A stretch of 64,000 bases of DNA, taken from positions 201,094 through 265,093 of the forward strand of contig CAWGRK010000001.1 of NCBI GenBank assembly GCA_963824995.1, read 5' to 3'. The notes under the pieces are model-generated. The model made no database searches and was not told the origin of the DNA. It saw nothing but the letters and a program-made list of their open reading frames with translations. This DNA is from an uncultured Actinomycetes bacterium. Its GTDB lineage: Bacteria > Actinomycetota > Acidimicrobiia > Spongiisociales > DATADW01. The position numbers and the translations under genes are program-made. Shown here in pieces: positions 18,156 through 54,322 of this stretch; the stretch's first letter is position 1; every line of letters begins with the position of its first letter.

Positions 18156-18168
18156 CTTTCGAACCCTC

Positions 18169-18504: not shown

Positions 18505-18546
18505 AGACGGATCCCACACTTGGGGGCGTAATCGTAGTATTGGTAG

Positions 18547-18933
18547 GTGAGCGAAAAGCCGTCCGAAGTGCGGGTCGAAATGCCCGCTCATCCGTCGATG
18601 GTGCACCTGCTCCGCACCACGGCCGTTTCACTGGCCCCGCCCACGACCGATGTCGATCGTCTCTCCGATCTGGCGCTGGCGGTGAGCGAGGCCGCGGTCG
18701 AACTGCTGAAACTCCGGGGTGCCGACCAGGTTGAGATGCGGGTATACGATCGATCCGACTCGCTGCATGCGGCGCTCACGGTGTCGGCCGAGGTGCCTGC
18801 GGGATGGGTGCAGGAATGGGAGAGCTCGATCTCGGCCTTGGTCCTGAACTCGGTGGTCGAGGATGTACGGGTGGACACGACAGGCGATCAGGCCCGGGTC
18901 GAGTTCGTCTTTCGGACCGCCCCGGTTCAGTGA
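18547..18933 (+). CDS. RsbW-like anti-sigma factor (degenerate HATPase)
   Basis: VEMPAHPSMVHLLR and LSDLALAVSEA pattern; no N-box Asn or G boxes. Confidence 0.7.
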   Translation: MSEKPSEVRVEMPAHPSMVHLLRTTAVSLAPPTTDVDRLSDLALAVSEAAVELLKLRGADQVEMRVYDRSDSLHAALTVSAEVPAGWVQEWESSISALVLNSVVEDVRVDTTGDQARVEFVFRTAPVQ

Positions 18934-19394: not shown

Positions 19395-19462
19395 GACCGG
19401 TCTCGTACCCCGCTTACCACAGATTCACACACAACCTCGAGGGCCGCGTGGATATTTGATTG

Positions 19463-19488
19463 GTTCCGTATCGGTTGGTTGTGGGTAA
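19463..19488 (+). promoter_or_regulatory. SigB/SigF-type promoter of the PP2C gene (near-leaderless)
   Basis: GTTC-N16-GGGTAA, 9 nt before ATG 19498. Confidence 0.6.
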
Positions 19489-19497
19489 GAGCCGGCG

Positions 19498-20643
19498 ATG
19501 ACGAACAGAGGGACTTCGAGCGGAGACCCGTCGCCCGCGGTGATCGAGTTGCTGGTCGCCCTCGATGGTGCCCCCTCGTATCAAATCCTCGACCAAACCC
19601 GCCGCGTCCTCAAACGTCATCACAAGCTGGGGGGGCTATCGGTTTACCTCCAGGACCACGGAGGACAAACCCTCCGCCAACTTGAGGGAACAGAGGAGAT
19701 TCCCATCGAGTACACGGCTGCCGGCGCGGCGGCCGAGGGAACCGAAACGGTCACCGAGGGTGACACGATGTGGGTCCCATTGGCGCACAGGGCAGAGCCA
19801 CTCGGGGTTCTCGAGTTGACCGAACCCGACCCTCAGTTGCAACAAGCGGCGCGTGCCATCGGGATCGCCCTCGGCTCCGCCTTGGTCAGCAGCACGCGCC
19901 AGAGCGACATGGTCGAAAGAACGAGAGGCGGAGGAAGGCTGCAACTTGCCGCCACCCTGCAACGGGCCATCCTCCCGAGTCCGGAGTATGTTGACAAGCG
20001 CCTCGAACTGTCCGGTTTGATCGAGCCCGCATTCGACATCGCCGGAGACTCCTTCGACTACGCCGTGGACCACACCGTCCAGGTGGGCATTTTCGATGCG
20101 GTCGGCCACGGGTTGCGGGCAGCCATTCTCTCGGCGCTGGCCACCGCCGCCTACCGATATTCCCGGAGACGGGAAGAGTCCCCCGAGCAGGCCTACAAGC
20201 TCATCGACGAGGCCGTCGCCATCGAGGGATTCTCCCACGAGTTCGTCACCGGCCTGCTATGCGTGATCGACACCGACCGGATGGAGGCAACCGTGGTGAA
20301 CGCCGGCCACATGCCGCCGCTCCTCTGGCGGAAGGGGAGTGTGAACTCCTTAGACCACGTCAAGCCGACGCTGCCCCTGGGGCTCGGCGGCACGCCATCC
20401 GAGGTGGCGATCGAACTCGAACCAGGCGACGTCCTGCTCCTCTACACCGATGGCATCGTCGATGCCACCCCCCTCCAAGGGAGCGCATGGGGTCTGGAGC
20501 GACTCATCGGACGGCTCACCAGCCACCCCGAGGCGGGCACGCTGAGCCGTTTCTGCCGGAGCCTGCTCGAAGAGCTCAAGGCGTACGTCGGGGCGGAACT
20601 TCGCGACGACGCCACGCTGTTGGCGGTACGCCTCGCCGGCTAA
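19498..20643 (+). CDS. PP2C/SpoIIE family Ser/Thr phosphatase (RsbU-like)
   Basis: LQRAILP, AGDSFDY, FDAVGHG, NAGHMPP, LYTDG and DDAT motifs. Confidence 0.92.
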   Translation: MTNRGTSSGDPSPAVIELLVALDGAPSYQILDQTRRVLKRHHKLGGLSVYLQDHGGQTLRQLEGTEEIPIEYTAAGAAAEGTETVTEGDTMWVPLAHRAEPLGVLELTEPDPQLQQAARAIGIALGSALVSSTRQSDMVERTRGGGRLQLAATLQRAILPSPEYVDKRLELSGLIEPAFDIAGDSFDYAVDHTVQVGIFDAVGHGLRAAILSALATAAYRYSRRREESPEQAYKLIDEAVAIEGFSHEFVTGLLCVIDTDRMEATVVNAGHMPPLLWRKGSVNSLDHVKPTLPLGLGGTPSEVAIELEPGDVLLLYTDGIVDATPLQGSAWGLERLIGRLTSHPEAGTLSRFCRSLLEELKAYVGAELRDDATLLAVRLAG

Positions 20644-20683
20644 AAGGGACGGAGTCGCGTCCACTGGTATACCCTCCGGTTTG

Positions 20684-21022
20684 GTGACTCACGCCGAGAT
20701 GGAAATCCACAGCAGCGACCAGTCGGGGGTGCCCGTCCTGGGTGTCAGTGGTGAGGTGGACCTGGCCACAGCACCAGCTCTGCAGACCGCCATGCTTGCG
20801 ATGATGGGACGCGGATCTTCCCGGCTCATAATCGACATGTCCGACGTCACCTTCATGGATTCATCGGGGCTGAGCGCGCTGCTCGCCGCCCGGGATGCGG
20901 GCGGCGAGGGCTGCGAGCTGATTCTGGTGGTCGTGCCGGGGATGGTGCGCCGTTTACTGGACACCACCGCCATCGGGACTCTGTTCACTGTTTTCGAGTC
21001 TCTCGACGGCGCCCTGTCTTGA
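20684..21022 (+). CDS. STAS-domain anti-anti-sigma factor
   Basis: GEVDLATAP and DMSDVTFMDSSGL motifs. Confidence 0.9.
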   Translation: MTHAEMEIHSSDQSGVPVLGVSGEVDLATAPALQTAMLAMMGRGSSRLIIDMSDVTFMDSSGLSALLAARDAGGEGCELILVVVPGMVRRLLDTTAIGTLFTVFESLDGALS

Positions 21023-27740: not shown

Positions 27741-30700
27741 ATGGCACGCCGCACCACCACCGGTCTTCGGATCGATCGCCGCTTCACCCAACCGGGTGTA
27801 GATCCCTACTCGACGATCGAGTGGTCGCCGTCGCGATTCGCGCATCACCAACCCCGACGGGTCGGTGGTGTTCGCCATGGAGGACGCCGAGATCCCGGCC
27901 TCGTGGTCGCAGGTGGCGGCGGACATCATGGTGTCGAAGTACTTCCGCAAGGCCGGCGTCCCCCGCGTGGACGAGTCGGGGAATCCGGTCCTCGACACCG
28001 AAGGCAACCCCGTCACCGGGCCGGAGACCTCGGCGCGTCAGGTGTTCGACCGACTCGCCGGTACCTGGCGGCGGTGGGGTGAGGAGAACGGGTACTTCGC
28101 CTCGGGCGACGACGCGGCCGCCTTCGAGGACGAGATCAAGTACATGCTCGCCAACCAAATTGCCTCCCCCAACAGCCCGCAGTGGTTCAACACCGGGCTC
28201 CACGACGCATACGGGCTCACCGGCCCCGCCCAGGGGTTCTGGTACATCGACCCCGACACCGAGGAAGCGGTCCCCTCCCCCGACGCCTACAGCCGCCCCG
28301 CCCCGCACGCTTGTTTCATTAATGCCGTCACCGACGATCTGGTCAGCCCCGGCGGGATCATGGACCTCTGGCTACGAGAGGCGCGGCTTTTCAAATTCGG
28401 TTCAGGTACTGGCTCGAACTTCTCTTCGATCAGAGCCGAGAACGAGCCCTTATCCGGTGGTGGGAAATCGTCCGGAGTCATGTCCTTCCTCAAAATCGGT
28501 GATCGGGCGGCGGGAGCCATCAAGTCGGGCGGCACCACCAGGCGCGCCGCCAAGATGGTGATCCTCGATCTCGACCACCCCGACATCGAAACGTTCATCG
28601 ACTGGAAGAAGATCGAGGAAGACAAGGCCAGGGTCCTCATCCAGCACGGCGGCTACCCGGCCGACTTCAACGGTGAGGCGTACGCCACCGTGTCCGGGCA
28701 GAACTCGAACAACTCGGTGCGGGTCCCCAATGACTTCGTGCGCAAGGTGATCGAGGACGGCGATTGGGAGCTCGTCGAGCGGACGACGGGCAAGGTACGC
28801 AAGACGATCAAGGCTCGTGAGCTCTGGCGTCGAGTCGCCGAGGCTGCGTGGTCGTGTGCCGACCCCGGTGTCCAGTTCGACACCATCATCAACGAGTGGC
28901 ACACCAGCCCCGCGGGGGGACGAATCCGCGCAACTAACCCGTGCGCGGAATATGTTTTTCTTGACGACACCGCCTGCAACCTCGCCTCGATAAACCTGGT
29001 GAAGTTCCTCGACGAGGAAACCGGTGTGGTGGACGTCGATTCCTACCGGCACGCCATCCGGCTGTGGACCATCGTCCTCGAGATCTCGGTGACCATGGCC
29101 CACTTCCCATCCGAGGAGATCGCCTGGGGGTCGTACTGGTATCGCACGCTCGGTCTGGGGTACGCCAACCTGGGCAGCCTCCTGATGCGGTCGGGGATCC
29201 CATACGACTCCGACGCCGGCCGCGCCATCGCCGGCGCCCTGACTGCCACCCTCACCGGTGTCGCCTACGCCACATCGGCCGAGATGGCGGCGGCGGTCGG
29301 ACCATTCGCCCGCTTTGCCGAGAACCGCGACGCCATGCTCCGGGTGATGCGCAACCACAGGCGCGCTGCATACGGCGCCGGGCAGGCGGAGTACGAGGGG
29401 TTGTCGCACCATGTGATGGGGATCGATCCGGCACACACCCCTGCCAACCTGCTGGAGGCGGCGCAGAGCAGTTGGGACCTCGCGTTGGAGTTGGGCGAGG
29501 AGCACGGCTACCGCAATGCCCAATCCAGTTGCATCGCGCCAACCGGAACCATCGGCCTCCAGATGGATTGTGACACCACCGGGGTCGAGCCCGACTTCGC
29601 ATTGGTCAAGTTCAAGAAGCTCGCCGGGGGCGGCTACTTCAAGATCGTCAACCAGTCGGTGGCGCCCGCACTCCGAACGCTCGGGTACGGCGAACAGCAG
29701 ATCGAAGACATGGTCCGCTACGTGATCGGCACCTCGATGTTGGAGGGTGCCCCGCACATAAACCGCCAGATACTCGGCGAGAAAGGTCTCACCGAGACCG
29801 AACTGGACCAGATCGACGCCACGCTCGGTGGGGTCTTCGAGCTGCGCCACGCCTTCAACGTCTTCGTCCTCGGGGAAGCGGTATTGCAGCGGCTCGGTTT
29901 CGAGGTGGACGACTACACCTCGTTCGATTTCGACCTGCTGCGCGAACTCGGGTTCACCCGCGAGCAGATCAGGAAAGCGACCGATCACATCTGCGGAACG
30001 CAGACGATCGAAGGCGCGCCTCACCTGCTGTCAGAGCATCTCCCCGTCTTCGACACTGCAAACAAGAACGGCCGACTGGGGGAGCGGTATATCCACCACA
30101 CCGGTCACATCAAGATGATGGCGGCAGTGCAGCCGCTGATCAGCGGGGCCACGTCGAAGACGATCAACCTCCCCCACGAAGCCACGATCGAGGACATCGA
30201 GGAGTCCTACATGCTGTCGTGGGAACTCGGGGTGAAGTGCATGGCGCTCTACCGCGATGGCTCCAAGGCCAGCCAACCGCTCAGTTCCGGCTCCGACGAA
30301 GGGCAATCAGACGAGGAGAGCGACGAGCTGGCGGCGGTCCACCAGGTGGAGAAGCAGATCCTCTGGGGACGGATCCCCGTCGGTCTCTCCCCCACCCAGG
30401 CGTACGCCCAGGGGATGCACCCGCCGCGGTTCATGCTCCCGGCGCGTCGTGCCGGTTGGACACAGGAAGCTCGTATTGGCGGGCACAAGCTCTACCTACG
30501 CACCGGCGAGTACGACGATGGGACCCTCGGCGAGCTGTTCATCGATCTGGCCAAAGAGGGCGCCACGCTGCGTGGGATCCTCTCCTGCTTCGCCATCGCC
30601 GTCTCCAAGGGTCTGCAGTACGGGGTGCCACTCGACGAGTTCGTAGACACCTTCACCTTCCAGACCTTCGAGCCGCGGGGCATGATCGAAGGCCATCCCA

Positions 30701-31182
30701 ACATCAAGATGGCCAACTCGATCGTGGACTACGTGTTCCGGGCGCTGGCCGTCGAGTACCTGCACAGGGACGAGCTTGCCCAGGTCCCTCCGCAGCGTGA
30801 CGGCGACCTGCCCGAACCACCCAAGGGCGTGGCCGCCGAGGCGGGTCTTCAGGTCGAGCTCTTCGACCATGCCGCCGAGCGCGACGTCGATGCCCTCAAG
30901 GCGGCGGCGTCCTTCGTTGATGGCCAGCCGTCCAACGGTCACTCCTCGGACCCATCCGTCGACGGCCGGGAGCCAGACGATCGGTCGCCCGACGTGGCGC
31001 ATCCGGTTCCAAGCCGCCAGACGGTGGCATTGGCGGCAGAAGCCGGGACCCGGGCGATGCAGGCGGCGTTGGAGGACATGATGGGCGACGCACCGTTGTG
31101 TGACGTGTGCGGCCACATCACCATCCGCAACGGCAGCTGCTACAAGTGCCTCAACTGCGGGAACTCCCTGGGGTGCAGCTGA
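27741..31182 (+). CDS. nrdJ: Vitamin B12-dependent (class II) ribonucleotide reductase; frameshift near 27828
   Basis: PNSPQWFN, ACFI, TNPCAEY, ACNLAS and IAPTGTI motifs, C-terminal TSCPD-like region and CxxC...CxxC tail. N-terminus MARRTTTGLRIDRRFT is in an adjacent frame with a GGGAGG RBS. Confidence 0.95.
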
Positions 31183-39984: not shown

Positions 39985-41577
39985 TCAACCCAATGCCATA
40001 CCCTCGACCGAACCGGTCGGGTCTGGCAATTTCATCATCCGGAACGAGTTGAAGAGCCCGACGAGCCCGGCGAGGATCGGGATGAGAAGGGCGACCTGGA
40101 GGGCAAAGGGTCTCGCCTCCGTGTTGATCCGGATCATCTCGTCTTGGATCACCTCGGGCTGGCCCACCAGCAGCTCGTCGAGCGCCGTGTTGCTCATCAA
40201 CTCCGCATCGTCTTCCAGCGCCTGCGCCACCTGCTCCTTCTCGTCCGGGGGAAGCACCGTGCTGTTTTGCGCCATGTCGGTGAAAGTGAGAGCAAGCGTC
40301 GCCAGCATGATGGCGCCGGCGAAGGCCAGCCCGAACGAGAGCCCGAACGACCCCGCCGCCGAGTTCACTCCCGCAGCCTCGCTGACCCGCTCCTCAGAAA
40401 TCGGGGACAGGGTGTAGTTGTTGAGCTGCGAGACCAACAGGCCGAGCCCCGATCCCGCGATCACCAATGGGATGACGAGGTACCAGCCAGAGTCTGCCCT
40501 CGGCACGATCGGGATCAGGACCGCCATTCCTATTGTGAGCAGGGCGAATCCCAGACGAATGATGCTCGCCGGACGTCTCGATCCAGCCTTCTTCCCGGCG
40601 AGGATGGCAACTCCGAACATGCTGAGGGAGAGCGGAGCCAGCGACAACCCAGCCCCCATCGCGTTGTACTCGAGCACCATCTGTAGGTAGATGGGAAGCG
40701 CGATCATGGCGCCCCCGAGCGAGATCTGCTGGAGCATCTGCTGGGAAACCCCGAACCTGAACATCTTGGATTTGAACAGATCCGGGTCAAGAAGCGTCGC
40801 CTTGTCTTGACGTTTGCGCCGAACCAACCAATAGACCAGCGCTCCCAGTGCAAAGGCACCAACCGCCAGTAGCGCAGCAACCGACTCACCGCCTTCCTGC
40901 CACACCAGGATGCTGAGCACGATGCCGCCCATGCCAAGGACGGAGAGGACCGAACCGACCGCGTCGACGCGGCGAGGTCCGGTGTAGGGAACGTCACGAA
41001 CGAGTCCCAGGCCGGACAGCACGATGGCGATCACCACTACCTCGAGCGCAAAGGCGACACGGTACGAAAGGTAGGTGGTGATGAAGCCCCCGATCAGCGG
41101 TCCGACGGCGGCGGCGATCGCAGCCGCTGCCCCAACGAGGGCGTAGACCCTCTTCTGAGCGGCGCCCTCGAAGTTGCCGTGGATGAGGGACTGCATCGAT
41201 GGCAGCAGGAGCGAGGCGCCCAGCCCACCCACTATTGCCCAGAAGATGATGATCGTGGTGAGGTCCTGAGCCAGCGTCATTGCCAGGGCACCGACGGCGT
41301 AGCCGAGTAGACCCAGGACGTATGCGCGTTTGCGCCCAAAGAGATCGCCGACCTTGCTCCCGATCAGGATGAAGGCGGCAGATACCAGCGCCTCGAGCGC
41401 GATCGCCGACTGGACGCCGCTGACCGTTGTGCCGAGATCCTGCACCACCGCCGAGATCGAGACGTTCATCAACGACGTGTCGACTACAAGCACGAACATC
41501 GCCATCGCCAGCAATAGGCCGAGCCGCCGATCGCCGGACGCTTCCTCAGGAACGACGGCTTCCGCTCCTTCGGTCAT
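39985..41577 (-). CDS. MFS transporter (DHA2-like, 14 TM)
   Basis: DTSLMNVSI, GSKVGDLFGRKR and GPLIGG motifs. Confidence 0.9.
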   Translation of the reverse strand: MTEGAEAVVPEEASGDRRLGLLLAMAMFVLVVDTSLMNVSISAVVQDLGTTVSGVQSAIALEALVSAAFILIGSKVGDLFGRKRAYVLGLLGYAVGALAMTLAQDLTTIIIFWAIVGGLGASLLLPSMQSLIHGNFEGAAQKRVYALVGAAAAIAAAVGPLIGGFITTYLSYRVAFALEVVVIAIVLSGLGLVRDVPYTGPRRVDAVGSVLSVLGMGGIVLSILVWQEGGESVAALLAVGAFALGALVYWLVRRKRQDKATLLDPDLFKSKMFRFGVSQQMLQQISLGGAMIALPIYLQMVLEYNAMGAGLSLAPLSLSMFGVAILAGKKAGSRRPASIIRLGFALLTIGMAVLIPIVPRADSGWYLVIPLVIAGSGLGLLVSQLNNYTLSPISEERVSEAAGVNSAAGSFGLSFGLAFAGAIMLATLALTFTDMAQNSTVLPPDEKEQVAQALEDDAELMSNTALDELLVGQPEVIQDEMIRINTEARPFALQVALLIPILAGLVGLFNSFRMMKLPDPTGSVEGMALG

Positions 41578-41694: not shown

Positions 41695-43200
41695 TCATGC
41701 GAGGAGCGCACCCACCCCTAGGACGACTATGGAAAGCGCCGCCAACATTGCCAGCAACGGCCAGACCCAACGCAGATACCTGCCATAGGGAACACGCGCA
41801 ATGGCGAGTCCGCCCATAACGACAGCGGACGTCGGTATGAACAAGTTCATCACCCCTGAGGCGCTCTGATACGCGGTTACGACCAGGCTTGCAGGCACAT
41901 CAACAAAGCCGGCCAGCGGTGCCATGATCGGCATCGCCACCGTCGCCAGCCCCGAGGTGGAAGGGATCAGGAAGGAGAGAGGGAGAAACAACACGTACAT
42001 CACGACCGCGAAAGCGGCCTGACCAACGCCTTCCAAAGCGACCTCGGCCCAATGGAGCACGGTGTCGGTGATCTGGCCATTGTTCATGATCACGGTGATT
42101 CCCCGGGCGATCCCGATGATCAATGCCACTCCGAGCAGTTCGCCCGCGCCGGTGACGAAGGTCGAGGTCAAGTCGCCCTCCCGCATCCTCCCGATCAGCC
42201 CGATCACGACCGAGAAGAGCAGGAACGATGCGGTCATCTCGGGAAACCACCACCACAGCGTCGGCAGGCCAATCCCGAGGTCCTCCCAGGGGATGACGCC
42301 GTAGATCATCACCAGGAACGCCAGCCCGAACACGACCAGGACCACCTTCTGAGTGCTGGTCATTTCCGTGGGGCCGTCTCCCTGGTCCGCCGCTCTGAAC
42401 CGCCGCTCGTTCTCCTCCTTCATGTCGGCGACCATCGAAAGCGCCGGCTCGTTCTTGACTCGGGCGGCGTACCGCATCACGAAGAAGATCCCGATGGCGA
42501 GGCCCACGATGAGGATCACCAATCGCCCGATGAGTCCGTCGCTTATCGGAATGCCGGCGAATCCGGACGCGATCCCGGTGGCGAACGGGTTGATGGTGGA
42601 ACCCAGAACCCCGATGCCGCACCCCAACAGGACGATTGCGGCACCGGTGAGGGCGTCGTAGCCGGCGGCGATCATCACGGTGATCACCAGCGCGAAGAAG
42701 GCGAGGCTCTCCTCCGCCATTCCGAAGGTGGTACCCCCGATGGCGAAGACGGTCATCAGGAGCGGGATCATCCACCTCTCCCGGCCCCGCAGCTTCGCCA
42801 CCAGCCTTCCGATACCCGCCTGTATCGCCCCGGTCTTCATGGTGACTCCGAGGAAGCCTCCGATCACGATGATGAACAGGGCGACGTCGATGGCACCGAA
42901 CAGCGTCCCGGTGTTGTAGTAGTTGATGTTCCCGGTCTCATCCTCGATCCCGTAGAGGCCGTTGATCGGAGCGGTGATCGAGTCGACGAGGATCCGCTGC
43001 GGGTTCGACTCCACCTCGTGATAGGTGCCCGGGATCGGCTCGCCCTCCTCGGTGACGTCGTAGTCGCCGGCGGGGACGATCCAAGTGGCGATCGCCGCCA
43101 GGACGATCAACGCGAACAGGATGGTGTAGGCCGAGGGAAGGGTGAAGCGTCCCTTCTTTGGGGCTTCTGCTTCGGGCTCGACTGCCGTCCCGTTACTCAT
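41695..43200 (-). CDS. YfcC/DcuC-family basic amino acid antiporter (probable Arg/Orn exchanger)
   Basis: LPSAYTILF, GGTTFGMAEE, STINPFATGIA and FLIPSTSGLA motifs; located in the arc operon. Confidence 0.88.
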   Translation of the reverse strand: MSNGTAVEPEAEAPKKGRFTLPSAYTILFALIVLAAIATWIVPAGDYDVTEEGEPIPGTYHEVESNPQRILVDSITAPINGLYGIEDETGNINYYNTGTLFGAIDVALFIIVIGGFLGVTMKTGAIQAGIGRLVAKLRGRERWMIPLLMTVFAIGGTTFGMAEESLAFFALVITVMIAAGYDALTGAAIVLLGCGIGVLGSTINPFATGIASGFAGIPISDGLIGRLVILIVGLAIGIFFVMRYAARVKNEPALSMVADMKEENERRFRAADQGDGPTEMTSTQKVVLVVFGLAFLVMIYGVIPWEDLGIGLPTLWWWFPEMTASFLLFSVVIGLIGRMREGDLTSTFVTGAGELLGVALIIGIARGITVIMNNGQITDTVLHWAEVALEGVGQAAFAVVMYVLFLPLSFLIPSTSGLATVAMPIMAPLAGFVDVPASLVVTAYQSASGVMNLFIPTSAVVMGGLAIARVPYGRYLRWVWPLLAMLAALSIVVLGVGALLA

Positions 43201-44761
43201 AGGAGCCTCCCTCTCGTGGGTCGATCGACGCGGGAAGGAGAGCGGTCTCGCCCTCCGGTGACGACGGCTGAAGCTGGGGGACCTTGAACCCGACATACCC
43301 ATAGATCACATCGAGGATCGGGCTCAGGATGTTGAAGAAGCAGTACGGAAGGTAGGCGGCAGTGGGAACACCGAGGACTCCCGAGATATAGGCACCGCAC
43401 GTGTTCCACGGGACCAACACCGAGGTCACCGTTCCCGAGTCCTCCACTGCTCTGGAGAGCACCTGAGGAGCCAGTCCGCGCTGCTGGAACTCATCACGGA
43501 ACATCCGGCTTGGCAGGACGTCGGCGACGTATTGATCGCCTGCGATCACGTTCAAGCCGATTCCACTGGCGTTGACCGCAAGGATCAAGCTGCCCCTCGA
43601 CCTCGCCCGGGAAACGATGGGGGACAACAGTCTCTCGAGAAACCCGGCGCGCTCCATGATCGAGGCGAACGCCAGCGCAGCCAGCACAAGCCACACCGTC
43701 GTGAGCAGGCTCGCCATCCCGCCGCGCGAGAACAACTCGTCAACGCCAGGAAGCCCTGGTGACGCGTCGACGTAGCCAGTGGCCATGGCGGCGTAGATCG
43801 CCTCGATGCCTGTTGCGACCGGTCCCAGAGCCGGATCTCCCACGAATGCCTCGACCGATTCCCTCTGGCGTGAAGACGGCGAGGATGCCTGCGAATAGAG
43901 CCGATCCCACGATGGCGAGAAACGGCGGCGCTTTCCTGACCGAGAAGAGGACAAGCAGGAGCAAAGGCAAGAGGGCGACCGGCGAGATGTTGAAGGCACT
44001 CTCCAGAGCCTCGACCGCTGCCTCCGAGCTCGCTTCACCCCCGGGAACCGCGGTCAGTCCCGAGTACGAGGAAGATGATGCAGACTGATCCCGATTGCCG
44101 GTCCGGCGGTCCAGAACATGTTGCGGACGTGTTCGCCGACGGTGAGACCTCCCCCCACCAGCTTCGGCACCAGGATGGTCGTCTCCGACAGAGGCGTCAT
44201 CTTGTCGCCGAAGTACGCCCCGCAGATGACAGCCCCGGCGGCGATCGCCTCGGACAGGCCGAGCACCCGTGCCATGGCGACGAAGGCGACCCCGAGCGTC
44301 CCCGCGGTGGTCCATGAGCTTCCGGTGACCATGCCGACCAGCGCACAGATCACCGCCGTCGCCAGGTAGAACCACTCCGGGCTCATGATGCTGATCCCAT
44401 AGGTGACCACCGTCGGGATCGTCCCCGCCATGTTCCAAGTCCCGATGAGCGCCCCAACCGCGAGAAGGATGAAGATGGCGCTCATCGCCGAAGAGACCCC
44501 GCCGACGATCGCCTCGGTGACCTCGGCCACGGTGTACCCGTTCTTGAAGGCAACCAGGGTGGCAAATGAGGCGCTCAACAGCAGGGCGACCTGCAACGGC
44601 CCGTCCGTAGCGCCGACTCCGAAGAGGGCGATGGTGAGGGCGATGAGGAGGATGAGGACGACGATCGGAGCCAGGGCGTCGAGCAGGCTTGGTGGACGAG
44701 GTCTTTGCGGCGAACCGGGACCGGGCCCAGCCGCCTCGTCCCCCGCCTGGGTGTCAGCCAA
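43193..44761 (-). CDS. nhaC: NhaC-family antiporter; about three single-base frameshifts (near 44081, 44060, 43865)
   Basis: GSSWTTAGTLG, GAYFGDKMTPLSETT, LFSRGGM and LSRAVEDSGTVTSVLVPWNTCG motifs are spread over several frames. Confidence 0.85.
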
Positions 44762-44915
44762 GGTCCCCGCCGAAGACGACCACCGTGGCGCCGCCCCGAG
44801 CGGACGACCCCACGTCGTCACCGCGCCGGTGCTCACCGCCCCGGGCGAATGCCACCAGACCCAGGACCAGCACCACCGCCACGATGATGATGACCCACCT
44901 CACGGAATCGCTCAT
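44754..44915 (-). CDS. Small single-TM protein (53 aa)
   Basis: AGGGAGGA RBS; MSDSVRWVIIIVAVVLVLGLVAFARG; stop overlaps the nhaC start. Confidence 0.65.
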   Translation of the reverse strand: MSDSVRWVIIIVAVVLVLGLVAFARGGEHRRGDDVGSSARGGATVVVFGGDLG

Positions 44916-44947: not shown

Positions 44948-46210
44948 CTATAGCGGGTCGCGCTCCAGCGGACATGTCATGCAGTGCCCTCCGCCCCGGC
45001 CCTTACCCAATTCGAAGCCCTCGATGGTGACCACCTCGACGCCGGCGCGGCGCATGGCATCGATGGTGTAGGTGTTCCGCTCGTAGGCGACGACCACGCC
45101 GGGCTCGAGGGCGACGACGTTGTTGCCGTCGTCCCACTGCTCGCGCTCCTGCTGGTACTCATTGCCCCCGGTCTCGACCACCTGGAGGTCGCTCACACCG
45201 AGGGCGTCGGCGACTGCAGGGATGAAGCCGTCCTCTTCGGTGACATGGAATTTTCCCGGCTCGGTTCCCGGGCGCAGGCTGATCGCCCGGACCTGATCCA
45301 TCACCTTCGGGTACACGGTCGCCTTGTCCCGGTCGAGCAGCGTGAACACCGTGTCGAGGTGCATGTGTGCACGGTCCTTGGTCATCACGACTGCAATGAC
45401 CCGTTCCGCCGCTCCCTTGGCAAAAAGGGCGCGGGCGATCTGTTCGATCATCCTTGCCTGCGTCCGCTCGCTGAGCCCGATCAGCACCGTGCCGTTGCCG
45501 ATCGGCTGCACGTCGCCACCTTCGAGCGAGGACCGCCCGAAGTCGGCCGCCTGGAAACGCCCATCGTCACCCAGTTCCGGATACCAGTACTCGAAATCGG
45601 CGTCGGCGAACATCGGGTGGTAGCGGTAGATGGCGGCGACGTTGTACGCCTCGAGACGTCTCGCCGGCCAATACATGGGGTTGACCGACACCCCCCCATA
45701 CATCCAGCATGACGAATCCCGTGTGAACAGCGTGTTGGGCAGCGGGGGGAGGATGAACGCACTGGTGTCGTCCAACGCCGCCGCACCGAGCGACGAGCCT
45801 CCCAGCTTGTCGAGGTCGAGGTCGGCTTCGGCGACCGTCATGCCGCCGATGAGGTGCCTGGCGAGGTCTTCTGGCTTGAGCGCCCAAAGCACGGCGCGCA
45901 CCTCATCGACCAGCGAGGTGCCCACGGTGTACTCCGACACCGTCAGTTCGATCAGGCGGCGGCGCCCCTCTTCGTCGGCAGCCAGCGCCTCGGCGAGCAG
46001 CTCGCGGAGGATGAATACCTCGACACCCCGCTCGCGCATCTTCGCCACGAACTGGTCGTGCTCGTATTGGGCACGCTCCACCCAGAGCACGTCGTCGAAG
46101 AGCAACTCGTCGTGGTTGGTGGGTGTCAACCTCTGCAGGCTCAGCTCTGGTCGGTGGACCATCACCCTCCGCAGCTTCCCGACCTCGGAGTGCACTCCGA
46201 ATGCGCTCAT
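44948..46210 (-). CDS. arcA: Arginine deiminase
   Basis: [28 protein letters not shown] and GGGHCMTCP motifs. Confidence 0.96.
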
Positions 46211-46226: not shown

Positions 46227-47141
46227 TCATTCGGGCACCACCTGGGTCCCCGCTGCGCCGTCCACGATCTGTTCGATCTGCTCCAGGCTCCCGATCGCGG
46301 CACCCTTGCCGGTGCGCTCGACAAACCGCCTCGCCGCCTCGACCTTTGGCCCCATCGATCCGGCGGCGAAGTCCATGGCCTGCAACTCGCCCGGCGTGAT
46401 CCGGTCGAGGCGCCTTTGCGACTCGGTGCCCCAATCGGCGTAGACGCCGTCGACGTCGGTCACCATCACCAGCAGGTCGGCTTCGACCTCCCTGGCGAGC
46501 AGCTCGCTGGCCAGGTCCTTGTCGATCACGGCCTCGACGCCGACCAGCGTGCGCTCGGCATCCGGGTCGTACATGGTCGGGATGCCGCCACCGCCGGCAC
46601 AGATCACCACGACACCCCTCTCCAACAGCCAGCGGATGGGCCGGATCTCGAATATGCGCTTCGGCTCAGGGGAGGGCACCACCCGGCGCCAGCGATCACC
46701 GTCCTGCTTTACGATCCAACCCTTGTCGGAGGCGAGCTGGTCGGCCTCCTCCTTCTCGTACACGGGTCCCACGAACTTGGTCGGATCCTCGAATGCCGGA
46801 TCCGCCGGGTCCACCTCGATCATGGTGAGGATCGTGGCGAAAGGGACCTCGAAGGGCAGGCGATTCCCCAGTTCCTGCTCGAGGAAATAGCCGATCATGC
46901 CCTCGGTCTGCGCCCCGAGTACATCGAGCGGGTAGGCCTCGACCTCTTCGTATGCGGCACCTTGAAGGGCCAGCAGGCCCACCTGGGGACCGTTGCCATG
47001 CGATAGGACCAGCTGGTGCTTGGTCGCCACCGCGGCCAGCGCCGGGGCCGCCGTCCTCACGTTCCTCCGCTGCACGTCTGCCGTCATCGGTTCGCCCCGC
47101 TTCAACAGGGCGTTTCCTCCAAGCGCGAGCACCACTCTCAT
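46227..47141 (-). CDS. arcC: Carbamate kinase
   Basis: [35 protein letters not shown] and GSMGPK motifs. Confidence 0.96.
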
Positions 47142-47152: not shown

Positions 47153-48154
47153 TCAGTCGCCCAGGGTGGCCACCATCACTGCCTTGATGGTGTGCATCCG
47201 GTTCTCGGCCTGGTCGAAGACGATCGAGTGCTCCGACTCGAAGACATCGTCGGTGACTTCCATCCCTTCGAGACCGTACTTCTCGAAGATCTCCTCGCCG
47301 ACCTTCGTCTCGCGGTTGTGGAATGCGGGGAGGCAGTGCATGAACTTGACCGCTGGGTTCTCGGTTCTACCGACGACGTCGGCGTTCACCTGGTACGGCT
47401 TCAGCAGTTCGATCCGCTCAGCCCACACACCCGGGTCCTCACCCATCGACACCCAGACGTCCGTGTAGAGGTAGTCGACACCCTGAACACCCTCATCGAC
47501 ATCCTCGGTCAGGGTGAGCCTCGCCCCGGTCTCCTCGGCGATCTCCCGGCATGTCTTCACAAGACCTTCTTCCGGCCAGAGGTGCTCGGGAGCGCATAAC
47601 CGGACATCCATCCCGAACTTGCACCCGCCGACCATGAGCGAGTTGCCCATGTTGTTGCGGGCATCGCCCAGATAGCAGAAGGCGATCTCCGACAGGTGCT
47701 TGTCGGAGTGCTCTGTCATCGTCAGCACATCGGCCAGGATCTGCGTGGGGTGGAACTCGGTGGTGAGCCCGTTCCAGACCGGTACACCGGCATGCTCCGC
47801 CAGCGTCTCGACGGTCTCCTGGCCGAAGCCGCGGTACTCGATCCCGTCGAACGTCCGTCCCAGGACCCGGGCCGTGTCCTTCATCGACTCCTTGTGACCG
47901 ATCTGCGATCCCGAAGGCTCCAGATAGGTGACGTGGGCTCCCTGGTCGTGAGCCGCGACCTCGAAGGCGGTCCTCGTCCGGGTGGACGTCTTCTCGAAGA
48001 TCAGCGCGATGTTCTTCCCGGCCAGCCGCTGCCGCTCGTAGCCACCGTATTTGGCAGCCTTGAGGTCTGCCGAGAGGCTCAACAGAAATCGCATCTCCTG
48101 CGGGGTGAAATCGAGTTCCTTTACAAAACTCCGGTTCCTCAGATTGAAGGCCAT
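47153..48154 (-). CDS. arcB: Ornithine carbamoyltransferase (catabolic type)
   Basis: STRTR, HPTQ and HCLP motifs; DGIEYRG has the Glu found in catabolic OTCs; arc operon context. Confidence 0.94.
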
Positions 48155-48162: not shown

Positions 48163-50940
48163 CTAACTCACGGCGACTGCATGACGTGGCGCCTCCTGGG
48201 CGGTCTCCCTTCGTCGGATCACGAACTTGATCAGCTCCTCGATGACAACGAGGGTCGCCGCCAAACCGACGCACACGGACCATTGGGAGAAGCTGAGGTC
48301 GACGGTTCCGAATATCCGCTGCAGGAAGCCGATCGTCGTGACCGCGATGATCGCCAAGAGGGCGATGCCATACCGGCGAAGTTGCGTCGCTCCTGGTAGC
48401 AGCCGTCGGTCGAAGATCGTGTTCCGTTGGTCTCGCGCCAGGTACCCGGCGGCGAGGTGGAAGACGGACAGCGTGGTGAGCAGCATGGTATTGGCTACGG
48501 CCGGTCCGAACGTCGGCTCGGCCCACTGGTAGGCGACAAGCGAGCCCACAGTCATCACGAATCCTTGGACGCAGAGTCGGACCCAGTTGGCACTGGAGAG
48601 GACCGGTGCCCCGACCGGGCGGGGAGCACGATCCATCAGCCCGACGGAGGGCACATCGAAACCGAGCGCGATTGCGATCGGGATGTCCACGACCATATTC
48701 AGCCACAGGATCTGCAGCGGGTTGAGTGGGATCCCGCCGGCTATGGCGAAGACTCCGGCGGCGATGAAGAGGGCGATGTAGGCGACCAGGGTCGACATCT
48801 GAAAACGCAGGTACTTGAGCAGGTTGTCGTACAGGCCCCGGCCGTACTCGACCGCGTTGACGATCGTGGCGAAGTTGTCGTCGGTGAGGATCATCACCGC
48901 GGCCTCCTTGGAGACCTCGGTGCCGGTGATGCCCATGGCAACGCCGATATCGGCTGCCTTCAGCGCCGGAGCGTCGTTGACGCCATCACCGGTCATGGCC
49001 ACGATGTTTCCGGTCTCCTGGAGCATGCGGACAAGACGAATTTTGTCCTCGGGAGCCACACGTGCCACCACACCGATGTTCCCGAGCTCTGCCTTCAGCT
49101 CGTCATCGCTCATCGCGGCAAACGCGGTGCCGGTGATCGCTTGTCCTTCGATCCCGAGCTCCTTGGCGATGGCTCCCGCCGTGGTGGCGTGGTCTCCGGT
49201 GATCATCCGAACCCGAATTCCCGCCTGTTTGCATTCGGCGATCGCAGCCTTCGCTTCAGACCGAGGCGGATCGACGATTCCGACCATCGCCAGGAGGGTG
49301 AGGTCATCCACGAGTTCTATGAGGCTGCCACCGCTGTCAAAGGACGATGGATCGAAGTCCTTCTGGGCAACCACCATCACACGATGGCCAGTCTCGGCCA
49401 TGGCATCGTTCGCATCGGACGCCAGGTGACGGTTGTCGTCTGAGACCGGGACGATGGTCCCGTCCGGAGCTCGAAAGGAACCCCCGCGCGAAATCAGGAC
49501 ATCGGGCGCTCCCTTGACATAACAGCGGAAAACCGGGGTGCCATCCGCTCCCTTCATCTCGTGGAAGGTCGCCATGAACTTGTATTCCGAGTCGAAGGGG
49601 ACTTCGGCAACCCGGGGATAGGTCTGGCGTGTGGTCTCTATGTCGAGCCCACCCTTGGCTCCGAGCACGATGAGAGCGCCTTCGGTGGGATCGCCGATCA
49701 GACTCTCTCCGTCCAAGACAGCATCGGCGCAGAGCACCATCGGGAGGAGGTAGGGATCGAGGTCGATGTGCTCGCCCCCGACGTGTTTGATCTCGCCATC
49801 GATGCCGTATCCCTCGCCGGAGACGGTGAACCGGTTCTGACCGGGGATGGCCATCTCTCGGGCCGTCATCTTGTTGAGGGTGAGCGTGCCTGTCTTGTCG
49901 GAGCAGATCGCCGATGTCGAACCAAGGGTCTCGACGGCCGGAAGCCGCTTGACGATTGCGTTGCGGCGTGCGATCTCCTGGGTTCCGATCGAGAGCAGCG
50001 CGGTGACGACCGCCGGGAGCCCGGTCGGTATGGCGGCGACCGCCAGAGCAACACCGGTGATGAACAGCGTGTCGAACGACTCGCCCCGCACCAACCCGAG
50101 GACCACGACAAGAACCAGCGCGATGCCGGCGATCGTTGCGATGATCTTGGAGAGGCCATCGAGCTGCTTTTGCAGCGGCGTCTTCTCCGATTCGGTACTG
50201 GCGAGCAGATCTGCAATCTTCCCGATCTCGGTGTTCATGCCGGTCCCGGTGACGATCATCTCGCCCCGGCCACGGGTAACCGAGGTGTTCATGTAAGCGA
50301 CGCACGTCCGGTCGCCGAGCGGTACTTCGTCCCCGATCACCGGTTCGGTGCCTTTGGCGACCGGCAGGCTCTCCCCGGTCAACGCCGCCTCCTCGATCTC
50401 GAGGTTGGCGGCAAGCGTGATCCGGCTGTCGGCGGGAACCACGTTCCCCGCCTCGACCAGCACCACGTCACCGGGCACCAGCTCGCCGGCATCGACCTCG
50501 AGCACCTGGCCGTCTCGGCGAACACGAGCAATCGTCTTCATCATCTGGGCGAGCGCCTTCACGCTCTCCTCGGCCTTCGACTCCTGATGCAGGCCCATCA
50601 CTGCGTTGAAGAGCGTGAGACCTACCAGCACCACCGTCGTGCCGGTATCCCCGGTGACGATCTGGTTGATCGCCGCCGCCCCCAGCAGCACGATCTGCAT
50701 GAAATCCTGGTACTGCCGGATGAATGCCTGGAAGCCCGACTCCTTCTTCGCCCCGGTCAGTTGGTTCGGGCCGTACTGCTCCAGCCGGCGTTGCACCTCT
50801 CCTGCGCTGAGACCTCGATTGACGTCAACACCGAGTGTCGCGGCCACCGCCTCCGCCTCGATCAGATGGGGCAACGACGAACCACTGAGGGCGCTACCTT
50901 CGACTTGCGTGGGTGTCAGGTCGGGGCCACCACTACTCAT
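48163..50940 (-). CDS. P-type ATPase, type II-like, with atypical TM4 motif (PTGL)
   Basis: [20 protein letters not shown] and GDGVND motifs; TM4 reads AAIPTGLP. Confidence 0.92.
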
Positions 50941-51250
50941 CGGTCCTCCGTTCGACTACAGACGTCTTATCCACCGGTATCCCCCTGAGGGAAGTCGACC
51001 TCATCATATGTCGGGGTGGCGATCCCGATATCCGGCTAGCGCGTTCATTCGCCAAGAGTTCGAGAGCCCGTCTCGTCTTTGTCTTCTTGCTCGAGGTCGG
51101 TCCCGGGCTCCCCGAGGAAGTCTCGGCGGCGAAGGCTTTGGCGAGCTTGCAATAGCGCGCCGGGATCTCGATGAAGCGCCCCTTGGTGCCTCTCATTCCG
51201 ACCGGCCCACTACACGACGACTCGAGCGATCAATCAACCTCGATGGATGA

Positions 51251-51556
51251 TCAGGCGAGAATTCGGGCCTTTTGGATAGCGAACTCCTCCTCGGTGAGGA
51301 TGCCCTGTGCCCTGAGCTCGCCGAGTTCGCGCAGCTGGGCCAGGGTGTCCTCGGTGCCGGCGGACGAGGCATATTGCGGTGCTGGCTGCGGGGGCGGAGC
51401 GACCGCCTGGTCGTAGGCCTGCTGGCGATCTGCGTAGATCTGTGCATCCCGGTCTGCGTAGCGCTCGGCCTGGCGGCGCTGAACCCGGCCACTGACTGCG
51501 GTCGCCGTACCGGCGACGACGGCTGTGCGCGCTATCCCGCGCATGAGTCCTGGCAT
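51251..51556 (-). CDS. SHOCT-domain protein
   Basis: C-terminal LRELGELRAQGILTEEEFAIQKARIL; AGGAG RBS. Confidence 0.88.
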   Translation of the reverse strand: MPGLMRGIARTAVVAGTATAVSGRVQRRQAERYADRDAQIYADRQQAYDQAVAPPPQPAPQYASSAGTEDTLAQLRELGELRAQGILTEEEFAIQKARILA

Positions 51557-51568
51557 TGCTTTCTCCTT

Positions 51569-52003
51569 TCAGTCAGCCGCCTCGGCGGCGTCCAGCGCGT
51601 CCATGATGTCCTGTGCGGAGAGGCGGGCGCTGGCGACCATCTGGCCATCCTCACCTCGAGCCGCGGCAACGAACGGGATCGCCCATGCGTTTTCGTAGAG
51701 CAACACCGCGGCGGCTTTGCCCGATTCGATTACCCCGGCCGCCTCGACCACATCGTCCGTCGTCAGCAGCCCAGATCGGGCTCCCGAGAACCTGGCGAGT
51801 GCGGACAGCGGCCCGTCGGACGACAGGTCGACTTCGGTGCAAGTGCCGTCGGCATCGGTGGTGACGACCATCAGGTCGTACAGCCGCACAGTCGCGCTGT
51901 CGATGAGATCGCCAAGTGCCTTGGCGGTATCGGCGCCGTCGGCACCGCCAGGAAACTCGATGACGAGCACGTCGACTGGCCCGTGGACATCGGGCTTGGT
52001 CAT
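51569..52003 (-). CDS. DUF6325/DUF1269-like protein
   Basis: GPVDVLVIEFPG, VRLYDL and AAVLLYENAWA motifs; GAGGAG RBS. Confidence 0.8.
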   Translation of the reverse strand: MTKPDVHGPVDVLVIEFPGGADGADTAKALGDLIDSATVRLYDLMVVTTDADGTCTEVDLSSDGPLSALARFSGARSGLLTTDDVVEAAGVIESGKAAAVLLYENAWAIPFVAAARGEDGQMVASARLSAQDIMDALDAAEAAD

Positions 52004-52041
52004 GACTCCTCCTAGATCGGGCTGCGCAGGATCTTCTGACT

Positions 52042-52425
52042 TCAGGCGAGGATCTTGGCCTTCTGAGCGGCGAACTCGTCGGCGGTGATGACCCCCGAGT
52101 CCCTCAACTGAGCCAGCTTGGTAAGTTCCTCGGCAGTCGAGGCACCACCAGTAGCGCTCACGTCCTGGATATACCGCCGTGTTGCCTTCTCCTGCTCAGC
52201 CGCCTGAGCAATGGCACGCTCCTGCATCGACTTCCCGCGGGCGATCAGATACACCAGCACACCGAGATAGGGGAGGATGATCACGAACAGCACCCAAAGC
52301 GCCTTGCCCCAGCCCGAGAGGTCGTCGCTGCGGAAGATGTCGGCGAAGACGGTGATCAGCAGCCAGATCCACACGAAGAACAAGAAGAACCACAGCATCG
52401 CCCAGAACAGATCCAACAACGGCAT
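52042..52425 (-). CDS. PLDc_N-like membrane hairpin + SHOCT protein
   Basis: DIFRSDDLSGWGKALW..PYLGVLVYLIARG, then ELTKLAQLRDSGVITADEFAAQKAKIL. Confidence 0.88.
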   Translation of the reverse strand: MPLLDLFWAMLWFFLFFVWIWLLITVFADIFRSDDLSGWGKALWVLFVIILPYLGVLVYLIARGKSMQERAIAQAAEQEKATRRYIQDVSATGGASTAEELTKLAQLRDSGVITADEFAAQKAKILA

Positions 52426-52641
52426 ACGAGCCACTCCTCTCAGACGCGTCGTCCCATGTGAACGACCGACAGAGGGTAACCGCCCGCCAGGACGCTCAGT
52501 CCGCCGGGCTGCGGTGGCCGCAGACAGGTTGCAAACGCTGGCTCACTCCTCATGCCCCGACGCTGACTGCCAGGTCACCCGCCGGAGGTCGCCGGATAGT
52601 GGTGGAGTAGTGTCTGGTTTCCCACCAACTAGGAGGTCACG

Positions 52642-52977
52642 ATGTCCGACATAAGCGATGTCGCCCGCGATATGCCGATTCTGCAAGAGGCGCTCTCGAT
52701 GACAGTTGACAGCTTCGAGCGATCGGGGCTCGATGATCGGACCTTCGTGATGGTGAGGATCGCCGCTCTCGCCGCCACCGGTGCCAATCCCGCTTCGTGG
52801 CTGTTCAATTTGGATGCCGCCGCCAACAGCGGTGTCAGCACCGACGACGTCCAGAGCGTCTTGGTAGCCGTGATGCCGATAATTGGAACCCCGCGGACGG
52901 TGGCGGCCATCGGAAACGCCATGCGGGGAGTTGGGATGGGCATCGCCGGATCGCAGATGGGTGAAGACGAGGTCTGA
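52642..52977 (+). CDS. Carboxymuconolactone decarboxylase/AhpD-like protein (no CxxC)
   Basis: SGLDDRTFVMVRIAALAA...PIIGTPR; AGGAGG RBS. Confidence 0.75.
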   Translation: MSDISDVARDMPILQEALSMTVDSFERSGLDDRTFVMVRIAALAATGANPASWLFNLDAAANSGVSTDDVQSVLVAVMPIIGTPRTVAAIGNAMRGVGMGIAGSQMGEDEV

Positions 52978-53026
52978 TCGGCAGCGCTCAGAGTTCGCAC
53001 ACAGAAAAGCCGAGGAAACCCGTAGG

Positions 53027-54322
53027 TCAATCGGTCGACACTGACGGGTCGCGCCGCCTCTTCCACGCCCAGTCGAGGACGACACTCAACGCCAATATCA
53101 CCACAATCGCCACCGCGGTAGCGGGCTCCTCTACCAGAGTCGTAAATGCGAAGGTCAAGAGCACACCAGCGGTGGTGACGACCCCCAGGATCAAGAGCCA
53201 GGCACTCGCTCCCGTTTCGGCGCGGACCCGTATGTGCCCTGCGGTGACCAATGTGAAGACCAGTAGGGCGATCGCACTACCGATAGAGGCGATCGCCGAC
53301 AGATCGAACCATACGGCCAAGACGATGGCCGCCAGGGCCGTGATGACCAATCCGGCTGGTGCCCTTCCTCCCAACCGGCGACCCATCAAGGGCGGGAACT
53401 GCCCGATGGTGGCCATCTGCTCGGACAGCCCGGCCGCCGGGTACAACCCGGCGTTGGTGGCGCCCGCTGTGGCGAACAGGGCGGTGACGCTCATCAACCA
53501 GTAGCCCGCCTGACCCAAGATCGGTTCGGCGGCGACCGCCAGGGCCGTGCCACCCGATTCGATCACCTCGTCAACCGTGAGGGTTCCGAACACACCGAGC
53601 GCCACCGCGACGTAGATCACCGTCGCGATGCCCAACGCCAGGAACACCGCTCGGGGGAGTTGGCGGGCCGGGTCGGACAGATCCTTGGCGGTGAATGTGA
53701 TCACACCGAATCCGAGAAATGCGAAGAAGGTCAGGGCAACGCTGGAGACGATGTCACCCAAGCCTGGGTATCCCGAAACGGCGAGAAGACCGGGCTCGAG
53801 GTTCGCCAGTGTGGCGACGGCGAACAGAATCAGGATCCCTATGACCACGAAAACCACGAGGCTCTGCACGCGAGCCACCGCCTGAGACCCCGCCAGATTG
53901 AGCCACGCCATGACCACGACGACCAGCACGGCAAAGCCTTTGATCCATCCGGCGCTTCCGTCGGTGAACATCGAGCTGGCGTAGCTGCCGAAGGAAACGG
54001 CAACCATGCCGGTGATGATGGCGTTGGTGGCAAATATCAGCCACGCGAGGATCCCTGTGACGTGGCCCTCACCGAATCCCCTCACCACGTATTCGAGGAG
54101 CCCACCGGCCGAGGGATAACGAGCACCGAACTTCGAAAAGGAATATCCCTGGAGGCCAGCAATCGCCCCGGCGATGAGAAACGAGAGCCAGACCGCGGCA
54201 CCGGCCACCTCGCCTGCCGCACCGAGTAGGGAGAATATTCCGGCGCCAACCATGGCCGCCACGCCGATGAACGCCGCCTGGCGGACCGACAGCCTCGCTG
54301 AAGGGGACCCCTCGCTCATCAC
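53027..54322 (-). CDS. APC family amino acid permease
   Basis: MVGAGIF, YPSAGG and FFAFLGF motifs; about 12 TM segments. Confidence 0.9.
   Translation of the reverse strand: MMSEGSPSARLSVRQAAFIGVAAMVGAGIFSLLGAAGEVAGAAVWLSFLIAGAIAGLQGYSFSKFGARYPSAGGLLEYVVRGFGEGHVTGILAWLIFATNAIITGMVAVSFGSYASSMFTDGSAGWIKGFAVLVVVVMAWLNLAGSQAVARVQSLVVFVVIGILILFAVATLANLEPGLLAVSGYPGLGDIVSSVALTFFAFLGFGVITFTAKDLSDPARQLPRAVFLALGIATVIYVAVALGVFGTLTVDEVIESGGTALAVAAEPILGQAGYWLMSVTALFATAGATNAGLYPAAGLSEQMATIGQFPPLMGRRLGGRAPAGLVITALAAIVLAVWFDLSAIASIGSAIALLVFTLVTAGHIRVRAETGASAWLLILGVVTTAGVLLTFAFTTLVEEPATAVAIVVILALSVVLDWAWKRRRDPSVSTD

Follow-up and report, generated by a model that had tools for sequence, protein, structure and literature searches.

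Can a P-type ATPase that is built like a calcium pump do without the glutamate held to be essential for Ca2+, and what would such a pump carry? The question is raised by a gene in the 64,000 nucleotides (nt) of DNA analysed here (the window), a stretch from an uncultured Actinomycetes bacterium (contig CAWGRK010000001.1, positions 201,094 to 265,093). The gene lies directly ahead of arginine deiminase (arc) genes, and in its product, a threonine takes the place of the glutamate in the fourth membrane helix (M4). Our analyses demonstrate that the pump belongs to a conserved, apparently undescribed P2A variant breaking the supposedly universal rule of the M4 Glu, and that its link to the arc genes is strong but non-obligatory. 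On the substrate we are more tentative: judging from sequence, the pump may move a monovalent cation, with NH4+ favoured, driven by ATP from arginine or polyphosphate, a reading to which we give a probability of roughly 0.45. Its activity, substrate, direction and physiological role are what we infer; sequence, conservation, descent and gene neighbourhoods are what we observe.

A P2A-type pump without the M4 glutamate

The pump gene and the parts of its ion site lie in the window at these positions:

48163..50940, minus strand: open reading frame of a P2A/SPCA-like P-type ATPase of 925 amino acids, with an ATG start, ten membrane helices and no M4 Glu
50023..50025, minus strand: ACC codon of Thr306, aligning with SERCA Glu309, LMCA1 Glu292 and KdpB Thr265
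49885..49899, minus strand: DKTGT phosphorylation motif with Asp348, from motif reading
48778..48804, minus strand: M5 segment, residues 713-721, SPCA-like and lacking the site I Asn and Glu
48685..48699, minus strand: Asn748 to Asp752 in M6, the remaining site II side chains
48457..48459, minus strand: His828 in M8, at a site I position, aligning with LMCA1 Arg795 and an SPCA1 Asp

The catalytic motifs, originally predicted to be intact, are so (TGES at residues 188-191, DKTGT at 348-352, KGAP at 476, DPPR at 557 and GDGVND at 651) and are invariant in the alignment. With 293.5 bits against a cut-off of 62.3, the pump is a member of the P-type superfamily by model TIGR01494, in agreement with its motifs and fold, and none of the specific NCBIfam pump models reaches its own cut-off with it. 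The best of these is the SPCA/PMR1-type model TIGR01522, at 634 bits (cut-off 798.3); the scores for P2C (397 of 946), P2D (458 of 645), P3B (347 of 611), P4 (61.6 of 431) and P5 (198.5 of 618) are likewise too low. The fold predicted from the single sequence was unusable (predicted local distance difference test, pLDDT, 37.6), and we took an alignment-based model instead, which has a pLDDT of 82 and ten membrane helices; its best structural match is SPCA1 (7yam; Z 41.2, root-mean-square deviation 3.7 over 853 aligned residues), followed by LMCA1 (Z 38.8) and SERCA (Z 38.4). Among solved structures, LMCA1 is the best match to the whole sequence (E 3.8e-158) and SPCA1 to the C-terminal part, while an ESM Atlas query returned generic P-type clusters only.

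The reading AIPTGLP in M4 was correctly judged not to be a miscall, the ACC codon of Thr306 matching neither Glu codon at any of its three bases. For the close relatives, we aligned with the query the best 120 of the 1183 proteins that a C-terminal query picked out of 6647 candidates with E values of 1e-20 or below. Because position 306 is Thr in 113 of the 114 listed rows that cover M4 (Val in one, Glu in none), the residue is neither an error nor chance, and this conservation together with the large group of genome hits rules out a sequencing error or pseudogene. In M6, WLNMVVD keeps its Asn and Asp as described; Asn748, Asp752 and His828 are each invariant among the listed matches (121 of 121 rows), as is Asn112 of M2 in the close group. 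The equivalent of SERCA Glu309 is described as conserved throughout the P2 ATPases and indispensable for binding and gating Ca2+ (PMC11977196, in the accessible part). Since the lost residue is so regarded, a substrate other than Ca2+ is likely, in line with the original prediction. The pump thus appears to fall outside the Ca2+ pumps by its M4, though it is built like a P-type cation pump, and labels such as Ca2+-transporting ATPase on named members of its group are probably wrong.

The remaining ligands separate the pump from each known type in a different way. SPCA1/PMR1 (P2A; human ATP2C1, PDB 7yam and 8iwp) shares the fold, an M5 of the form RFQ-x-ST without site I ligands and the M6 Asn and Asp; the pump differs in the M6 segment GPP-A-Q and in having Thr for the M4 Glu of PEGL and His at the site I position. 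The M5 segment FQMSTLVAY does lack the Asn and Glu, as claimed, but it is not a rewired feature: human SPCA1 reads FVRFQLSTSIAA at the matching segment, likewise without either residue, and site I is specific to SERCA (PMC7065118, in the part consulted), so M5 is that of an ordinary single-site SPCA-type pump. At the SERCA site I ligand positions of M5, M6 and M8, the pump carries Leu718, Tyr721 and His828, and it is not a two-site pump. LMCA1 (Listeria monocytogenes, P2A, PDB 6zhf) similarly has a single site between M4 and M6, but keeps Glu292 and has Arg795 where the pump has His828. CtpE-like (P6, family 23) Ca2+ uptake ATPases are also actinobacterial and P2-like with an incomplete site; CtpE, however, keeps PEGL and lacks the M6 Asp, the opposite loss to that of the pump (PMC10654040, as far as available).

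The likeness to KdpB (P1A) is of another kind. The Thr after the M4 proline and the M6 Asn are KdpB's K+-binding side chains, and in a profile alignment to the KdpB of the same genome, Thr306 falls on the post-proline Thr and Asn748 on the M6 Asn, the ligand numbering being that of Escherichia coli, carried over to this KdpB by inference. The pump has ten helices against KdpB's seven, lacks the M5 Asp/Lys pair, scores 142 bits with TIGR01497 (cut-off 528) and is not flanked by kdp genes; the likeness is convergent.

Some relatives have gone further. In a sister lineage, represented by the best 120 of 864 homologues of one member, M4 reads PTGL in 91 and PTGM in 20 (nine rows do not cover it), with no Glu in the 111 covered rows, and the position of Asp752 holds Gln in 101, Thr in 19 and Asp in none; these homologues have no acidic residue at the M4, M5 and M6 site positions. 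Unlike Asp752, Thr306 and Asn748 are present in all 45 rows compared from the close group and all 50 from the sister lineage, and the two lineages also share Gln714, Gln82 (M1), and Thr101, Thr109 and Asn112 (M1-M2).

These variants bear on the idea that the database labels are correct and the pump moves Ca2+ or Mn2+ through a relaxed site, which we consider quite improbable. It is true that SPCA1 and LMCA1 are the closest solved relatives, that Asn748, Asp752 and the carbonyls are retained, that one state of LMCA1 holds Ca2+ without the Glu side chain (PMC11977196) and that CtpE imports Ca2+ despite its incomplete site (PMC10654040, same portion). The SERCA mutant E309Q, however, is a loss-of-function form (PMC7313052), the sister lineage has a carboxylate at neither position, and the arc or polyphosphate gene neighbourhoods described below surround none of 19 glutamate-bearing relatives.

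The pump's ancestry lies among single-site, SPCA-like P2A Ca2+ pumps. The rows of our trees were picked by likeness to the query, with P2C, P3A and P3B references left out. On a quick tree of 62 rows (18 near-duplicate or short rows of 80 omitted), built without the M4 and M5-M10 columns, the 31 non-PEGL rows form one clade (SH-aLRT branch support 99) inside bacterial PEGL pumps of SPCA-like type. On a stricter tree of 43 rows, with all membrane columns removed and bootstraps added, support of 100/99 unites the close group with the sister lineage; the main glutamate-less group has 20 rows (94/95), and a second group (100/100), of unsettled position, consists of five divergent rows, a single origin of the glutamate-less forms appearing in 28% of bootstraps. 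A strict single origin of them all, one clade on the first tree and two groups on the second, was not retained as more than a possibility. The CtpE-like gene that the genome encodes separately sits on a very long branch.

The group is large. A scan of species-representative genomes gave at least 600 stretches, of which 581 were confirmed and 80 retained as close loci, carrying the motif by construction; by record titles, 74 of them belong to Actinomycetota, three to Acidobacteriota and one to Chloroflexia. Among 400 genomes sampled evenly across the phylum, 25 contain members (two placed by the C-terminal part alone), and source names of the sister-lineage homologues add Anaerolineae and Methanoregulaceae. 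Of the 5000 best plasmid records, none was more than 60% identical to the pump. With the conserved Thr, these numbers and its own grouping on the trees, the uncharacterised subfamily suspected at the outset is real. Survey families 23 and 24 are CtpE- and CtpH/I-like (PMC3924187, PMC3573892, PMC5615198, each seen in part) and unlike the pump, and a paper that expects more prokaryotic P-type families has, in its accessible part, no group like these (PMC10654040). We found no description of a PTGL motif, of a P-type ATPase in an arc operon or with PPK2, or of a glutamate-less bacterial subfamily in a literature search that mostly excluded subscription papers, so that an earlier mention is possible.

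More distant members vary at M4 (PTGM, PVGL, PAGL, PDAL, PMAM, PEAL and PEEL), and their M6 segments are highly diverse. Several loci (L152, L154-L158, L160, L161, L163 and the first pump of L007) form a divergent subgroup with the hinge GDAVND in place of GDGVND, in several of which Lys or Leu replaces Asn748; their substrate is possibly a different one. In L164-L168, M4 reads PDAL or PAGL, and the M6 Asn is replaced by His or Lys. PEAL variants (L169, L185, L190), with an M6 His and no Asp, are nested among the glutamate-less pumps, and their Glu may have been regained; they adjoin PPK2 (L169, L185) and SulP (L169), and one is on a Streptomyces plasmid. A genome of another family (G018, locus L007) has two glutamate-less pumps in tandem, one with Gln in place of Asp752, and arc genes 3-6 kb away. 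The two (L007:3389-12405) are 41% and 61% identical to the window pump and are followed by a weakly CYTH-like gene, Ppx/GppA, a further gene, presumably TMEM175-like, and then the arc genes.

An M4 Glu regarded as universal and essential in P2 pumps has thus been dropped by a large natural group, and one branch has additionally dropped the M6 Asp while keeping the catalytic machinery. The result is a set of naturally occurring ion-site variants built on a single scaffold, which helps to ask how P-type pumps switch substrate; the cargo of carboxylate-less P-type pumps is an open question for prokaryotes (PMC10654040, in excerpt).

The link to arginine deiminase and polyphosphate kinase genes

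The original prediction tied the pump to arginine deiminase metabolism and placed it at the head of the arc operon, with its stop 8 nt from arcB. The distance is exact (stop at 48165-48163, arcB ATG at 48154), and a GGAG-rich, ribosome-binding-like stretch overlaps the pump's stop codon ahead of arcB. The surrounding features are:

47153..48154, minus strand: arcB, ornithine carbamoyltransferase (NF003286, 551.7 bits, cut-off 515), 8 nt past the pump
46227..47141, minus strand: arcC, carbamate kinase (TIGR00746, 416.1 bits, cut-off 358.25)
44948..46210, minus strand: arcA, arginine deiminase (NF002381, 527.1 bits, cut-off 414; TIGR01078, 467.6, slightly below 489.1)
43193..44836, minus strand: NhaC/ArcD-like antiporter gene, broken by a pair of opposing frameshifts with some 190-210 nt between them
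41695..43200, minus strand: YfcC/DcuC-family putative basic amino acid antiporter (PF03606, 388.6 bits; NF008611 below cut-off)
39985..41577, minus strand: DHA2-like MFS transporter, recurring beside the pump in 26 of 80 close loci
51251..54322, minus strand: upstream module of a SHOCT protein, a DUF6325 protein, a PLDc_N-SHOCT protein, a 111-residue protein without a family and an APC amino-acid permease
51232..51252: palindromic operator-like site of 21 nt with a TCA-N11-TGA core (score 17.9), about 290 nt upstream of the pump start

Like a known arc operon, the locus has arcA, arcB and arcC, clustered on one strand with two candidate exchangers, and adds a P-type ATPase as its probable first gene. 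That the pump heads the operon is likely, but five genes on the same strand lie upstream, 310 nt off. Among 37 arcB-adjacent loci, the upstream gene faces away in 16, and in these the pump is therefore the first gene. In four soil RNA runs (one study, small shares), short contigs fall across the region, and none of those listed bridges the pump-arcB junction. A search for sigma-70-type promoters found none against 1.9 expected, and Rfam gave no match, riboswitches included, within the window or upstream of four relatives except three tRNAs in L078.

Across the group, the association recurs. In the 75 of 80 close loci with enough downstream DNA, arcB is directly next in 41 (at least one of them a remnant), some arc gene is present in 43 and none in 32; 37 of the 41 arcB-adjacent loci have 10-50 nt between the pump and arcB. 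No arc gene was found at the 19 glutamate-bearing PEGL control loci of similar length. Of the 30 clusters into which the pumps fall at 80% identity, 18 contain an arc locus, and the whole pump-arc operon is present in cultured soil strains (Catellatospora; L053, L055, L058 and L099). On the mostly short metagenome contigs of the sister lineage, arc genes occur in 16 of 80, or 12 of the 28 having 500 nt on either side, upstream or downstream of the pump and in several gene orders. Three of 22 more distant loci (L156, L191, L164) adjoin deiminase clusters, L164 facing a cluster of a very distant deiminase, ornithine carbamoyltransferase and carbamate kinase. In an ArcA tree with 15 linked and 20 unlinked sequences, where that of L164 is a long branch, the linked ones need four changes and a single clade is rejected (approximately unbiased test, p-AU 0.0002). 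The proposed tie to deiminase metabolism thus holds insofar as the link recurs with different ArcA lineages and gene orders, but as the 32 loci without arc genes indicate, it is not obligatory.

A second partner is the polyphosphate kinase PPK2, as common a neighbour as arc genes in the sister lineage: among 29 evaluable loci there, 17 have PPK2 as the immediate upstream gene and six a gene of the arc operon. PPK2 is within 700 nt of the pump in 22 of 80 sister, six of 22 distant and two of 80 close loci, and in none of the 19 controls; the neighbours fall into two PPK2 subfamilies. Ppx, SulP, MFS, APC, SHOCT, DUF6325, DUF7144, DUF308 and MalT-like regulator genes recur as well, those of the window's upstream module among them. 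Two recurrent neighbours have no Pfam match: a membrane-like protein of 165 residues, often paired (18 loci; L123:13261-13755), and one of 254 residues with a faint CYTH signal (11 loci; L127:12015-12776). The CYTH-like label of one neighbour is weak (Pfam E 0.005; 14% of members in the Atlas).

Could the pump and the arc genes merely reside together in a shuffling stress island under one regulator, with no direct tie to arginine and any substrate possible? We regard this as doubtful. SHOCT, DUF6325, DUF7144, MFS, APC and MalT-like LuxR genes do recur in varying order; a de novo matrix for the palindrome finds sites upstream of 25 of 72 close relatives, its training set, regardless of the presence of arcB (shuffled mean 0.6; controls 0 of 16); and in the phylum sample, a single ArcA subtype (at least 84% identical) accompanies the pump in all six genomes. 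Mere co-residence explains less readily the close pump-arcB junctions and the adjacency with four ArcA lineages, the very distant L164 cluster included, and with two PPK2 subfamilies. The same matrix has 89 sites in the window genome, a second one in the window at 8632-8652, and the MalT-like LuxR genes, found in 24 of 80 close loci, are putative binders of the palindrome.

Candidate substrates

The ties to arginine deiminase and PPK2 reduce the candidate substrates to a short list. Carbamate kinase and PPK2 both produce ATP without respiration. Replacing Glu by Thr in M4 would remove the carboxylate that binds and gates Ca2+, and what remains would be a mostly neutral oxygen cage of three M4 backbone carbonyls, Thr306 and Asn748 of M6. 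This is the ligand set by which the canonical KdpB site holds K+ (three M4 carbonyls, Thr265 and Asn624; PMC12629597, in its available part), and on that ground a monovalent cation seems the most likely cargo. We would put NH4+, the end product of arginine deiminase, first, since it fits the deiminase link best, with K+, Na+ and hydronium as alternatives; with a relaxed KdpA filter, KdpB lets NH4+ and Rb+ through (PMC12629597, likewise). Presumably co-expressed with the makers of ATP, the pump might spend substrate-level ATP to hold pH and membrane potential in acid or anoxic stress. The boldest form of this idea, a first ATP-driven ammonium pump that exports deiminase NH4+ through a KdpB-like neutral cage with ATP from carbamate kinase or polyphosphate, shared by Actinomycetota, Chloroflexota and methanogenic archaea, we consider unlikely.

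Several observations weigh against a monovalent-cation pump tied to arginine or polyphosphate. A K+-like site facing the cytoplasm would presumably have to reject abundant K+; KdpB also requires the M5 Asp/Lys absent here; and the window genome already encodes Kdp and an Amt channel. One arginine gives one ATP, so pumping would consume the entire gain. Distant members have Lys, His or at least no Asn at 748, and since their M5 and M6 differ strongly, one substrate may not suit all. On the genomic side, besides the close loci without any arc gene, seven of 32 genomes with a pump not adjacent to arc genes had no ArcA match, and while ArcA matches occur in 102 of 401 genomes, only four of the 101 other ArcA genomes of the phylum sample have the pump within 10 kb.

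A proton was among the substrates first proposed. In a P3A-like scheme, Asp752 would act as proton acceptor, with its pKa tuned by His828 from the empty site I. P3A pumps are not known to carry an M4 Glu. The pump shares with the P3A H+-ATPases (AHA2, Pma1) the M6 Asp, their proton acceptor (PMC10654040, as accessible), and the M2 Asn; the close group keeps Asp752, His828 and Asn112 without exception, and its gene neighbourhood is compatible with pH control. It lacks their mid-M5 Arg, however, with neither Arg nor Lys within 713-730, and scores 405 bits with TIGR01647 (cut-off 615.5). Transport of H+ through the M6 Asp is further weakened because all 120 listed homologues of the sister lineage, which has ties to the same arc genes, carry Gln or Thr at that position, and we hold this scheme to be rather improbable.

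The same replacements could be taken to mean that the pump moves an organic solute such as ornithine, citrulline or a polyamine, or flips a lipid, its site having come to resemble, by convergence, the carboxylate-poor ones of P4 and P5 pumps. In the sister lineage, where M4, M5 and M6 offer no acidic residue, the conserved Gln82, Thr101, Thr109 and Gln714 line the site; some distant members have Lys or His in M6; and arc linkage persists across the different site types. We still find such a cargo unlikely: the operon already holds two candidate arginine/ornithine exchangers, the P4 and P5 models are far from their cut-offs, and the PPK2 link would be left unexplained.

A largely uncoupled ATPase, regenerating ADP and phosphate for carbamate kinase and the catabolic ornithine carbamoyltransferase, would account for both partner systems using ADP and for membrane-site residues drifting between sublineages while catalytic motifs stay constant. 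The membrane helices are strongly conserved inside each sublineage, though, which is hard to explain without a ligand and makes this a very remote prospect. We also rejected the pump as a stand-in for an ATP synthase unable to hydrolyse ATP, for which there is a mycobacterial case (PMC10049701); the alpha subunit here has 517 amino acids, and a long tail is not evident.

Other features of the genome and the window

In the window genome (G000), three further P-type ATPases were seen, and the assembly, which is 85% complete, yielded no canonical SPCA- or SERCA-like pump:

C9 22811-25168: CtpE-like PEGL pump
C10 350811-352151: CPC heavy-metal pump
C12 6460-8502: KdpB

The NhaC/ArcD-like gene at 43193-44836 has a stop in its main frame, whereas the copy in L047, from the same genus, reads through 478 codons without a stop and the gene is absent from the same-genus loci L008 and L010; loci of this genus are rich in such indels, and the split is possibly an assembly error. 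On a Pseudonocardia plasmid (L189:5169-11778), the genes of V-type ATP synthase subunits F, A and B form one run with the PEGL pump gene that comes after them; the part shown contains no further V-type subunits. The window itself also holds a Sigma-B-like cluster at 16784-21019, in which a fusion of a sigma factor with an anti-sigma kinase domain is accompanied by two further HATPase_c_2 genes, a SpoIIE phosphatase and two STAS proteins; a fused B12-binding/MeaB/mutase gene at 752-4126; and a class II B12-dependent ribonucleotide reductase at 27865-31179.

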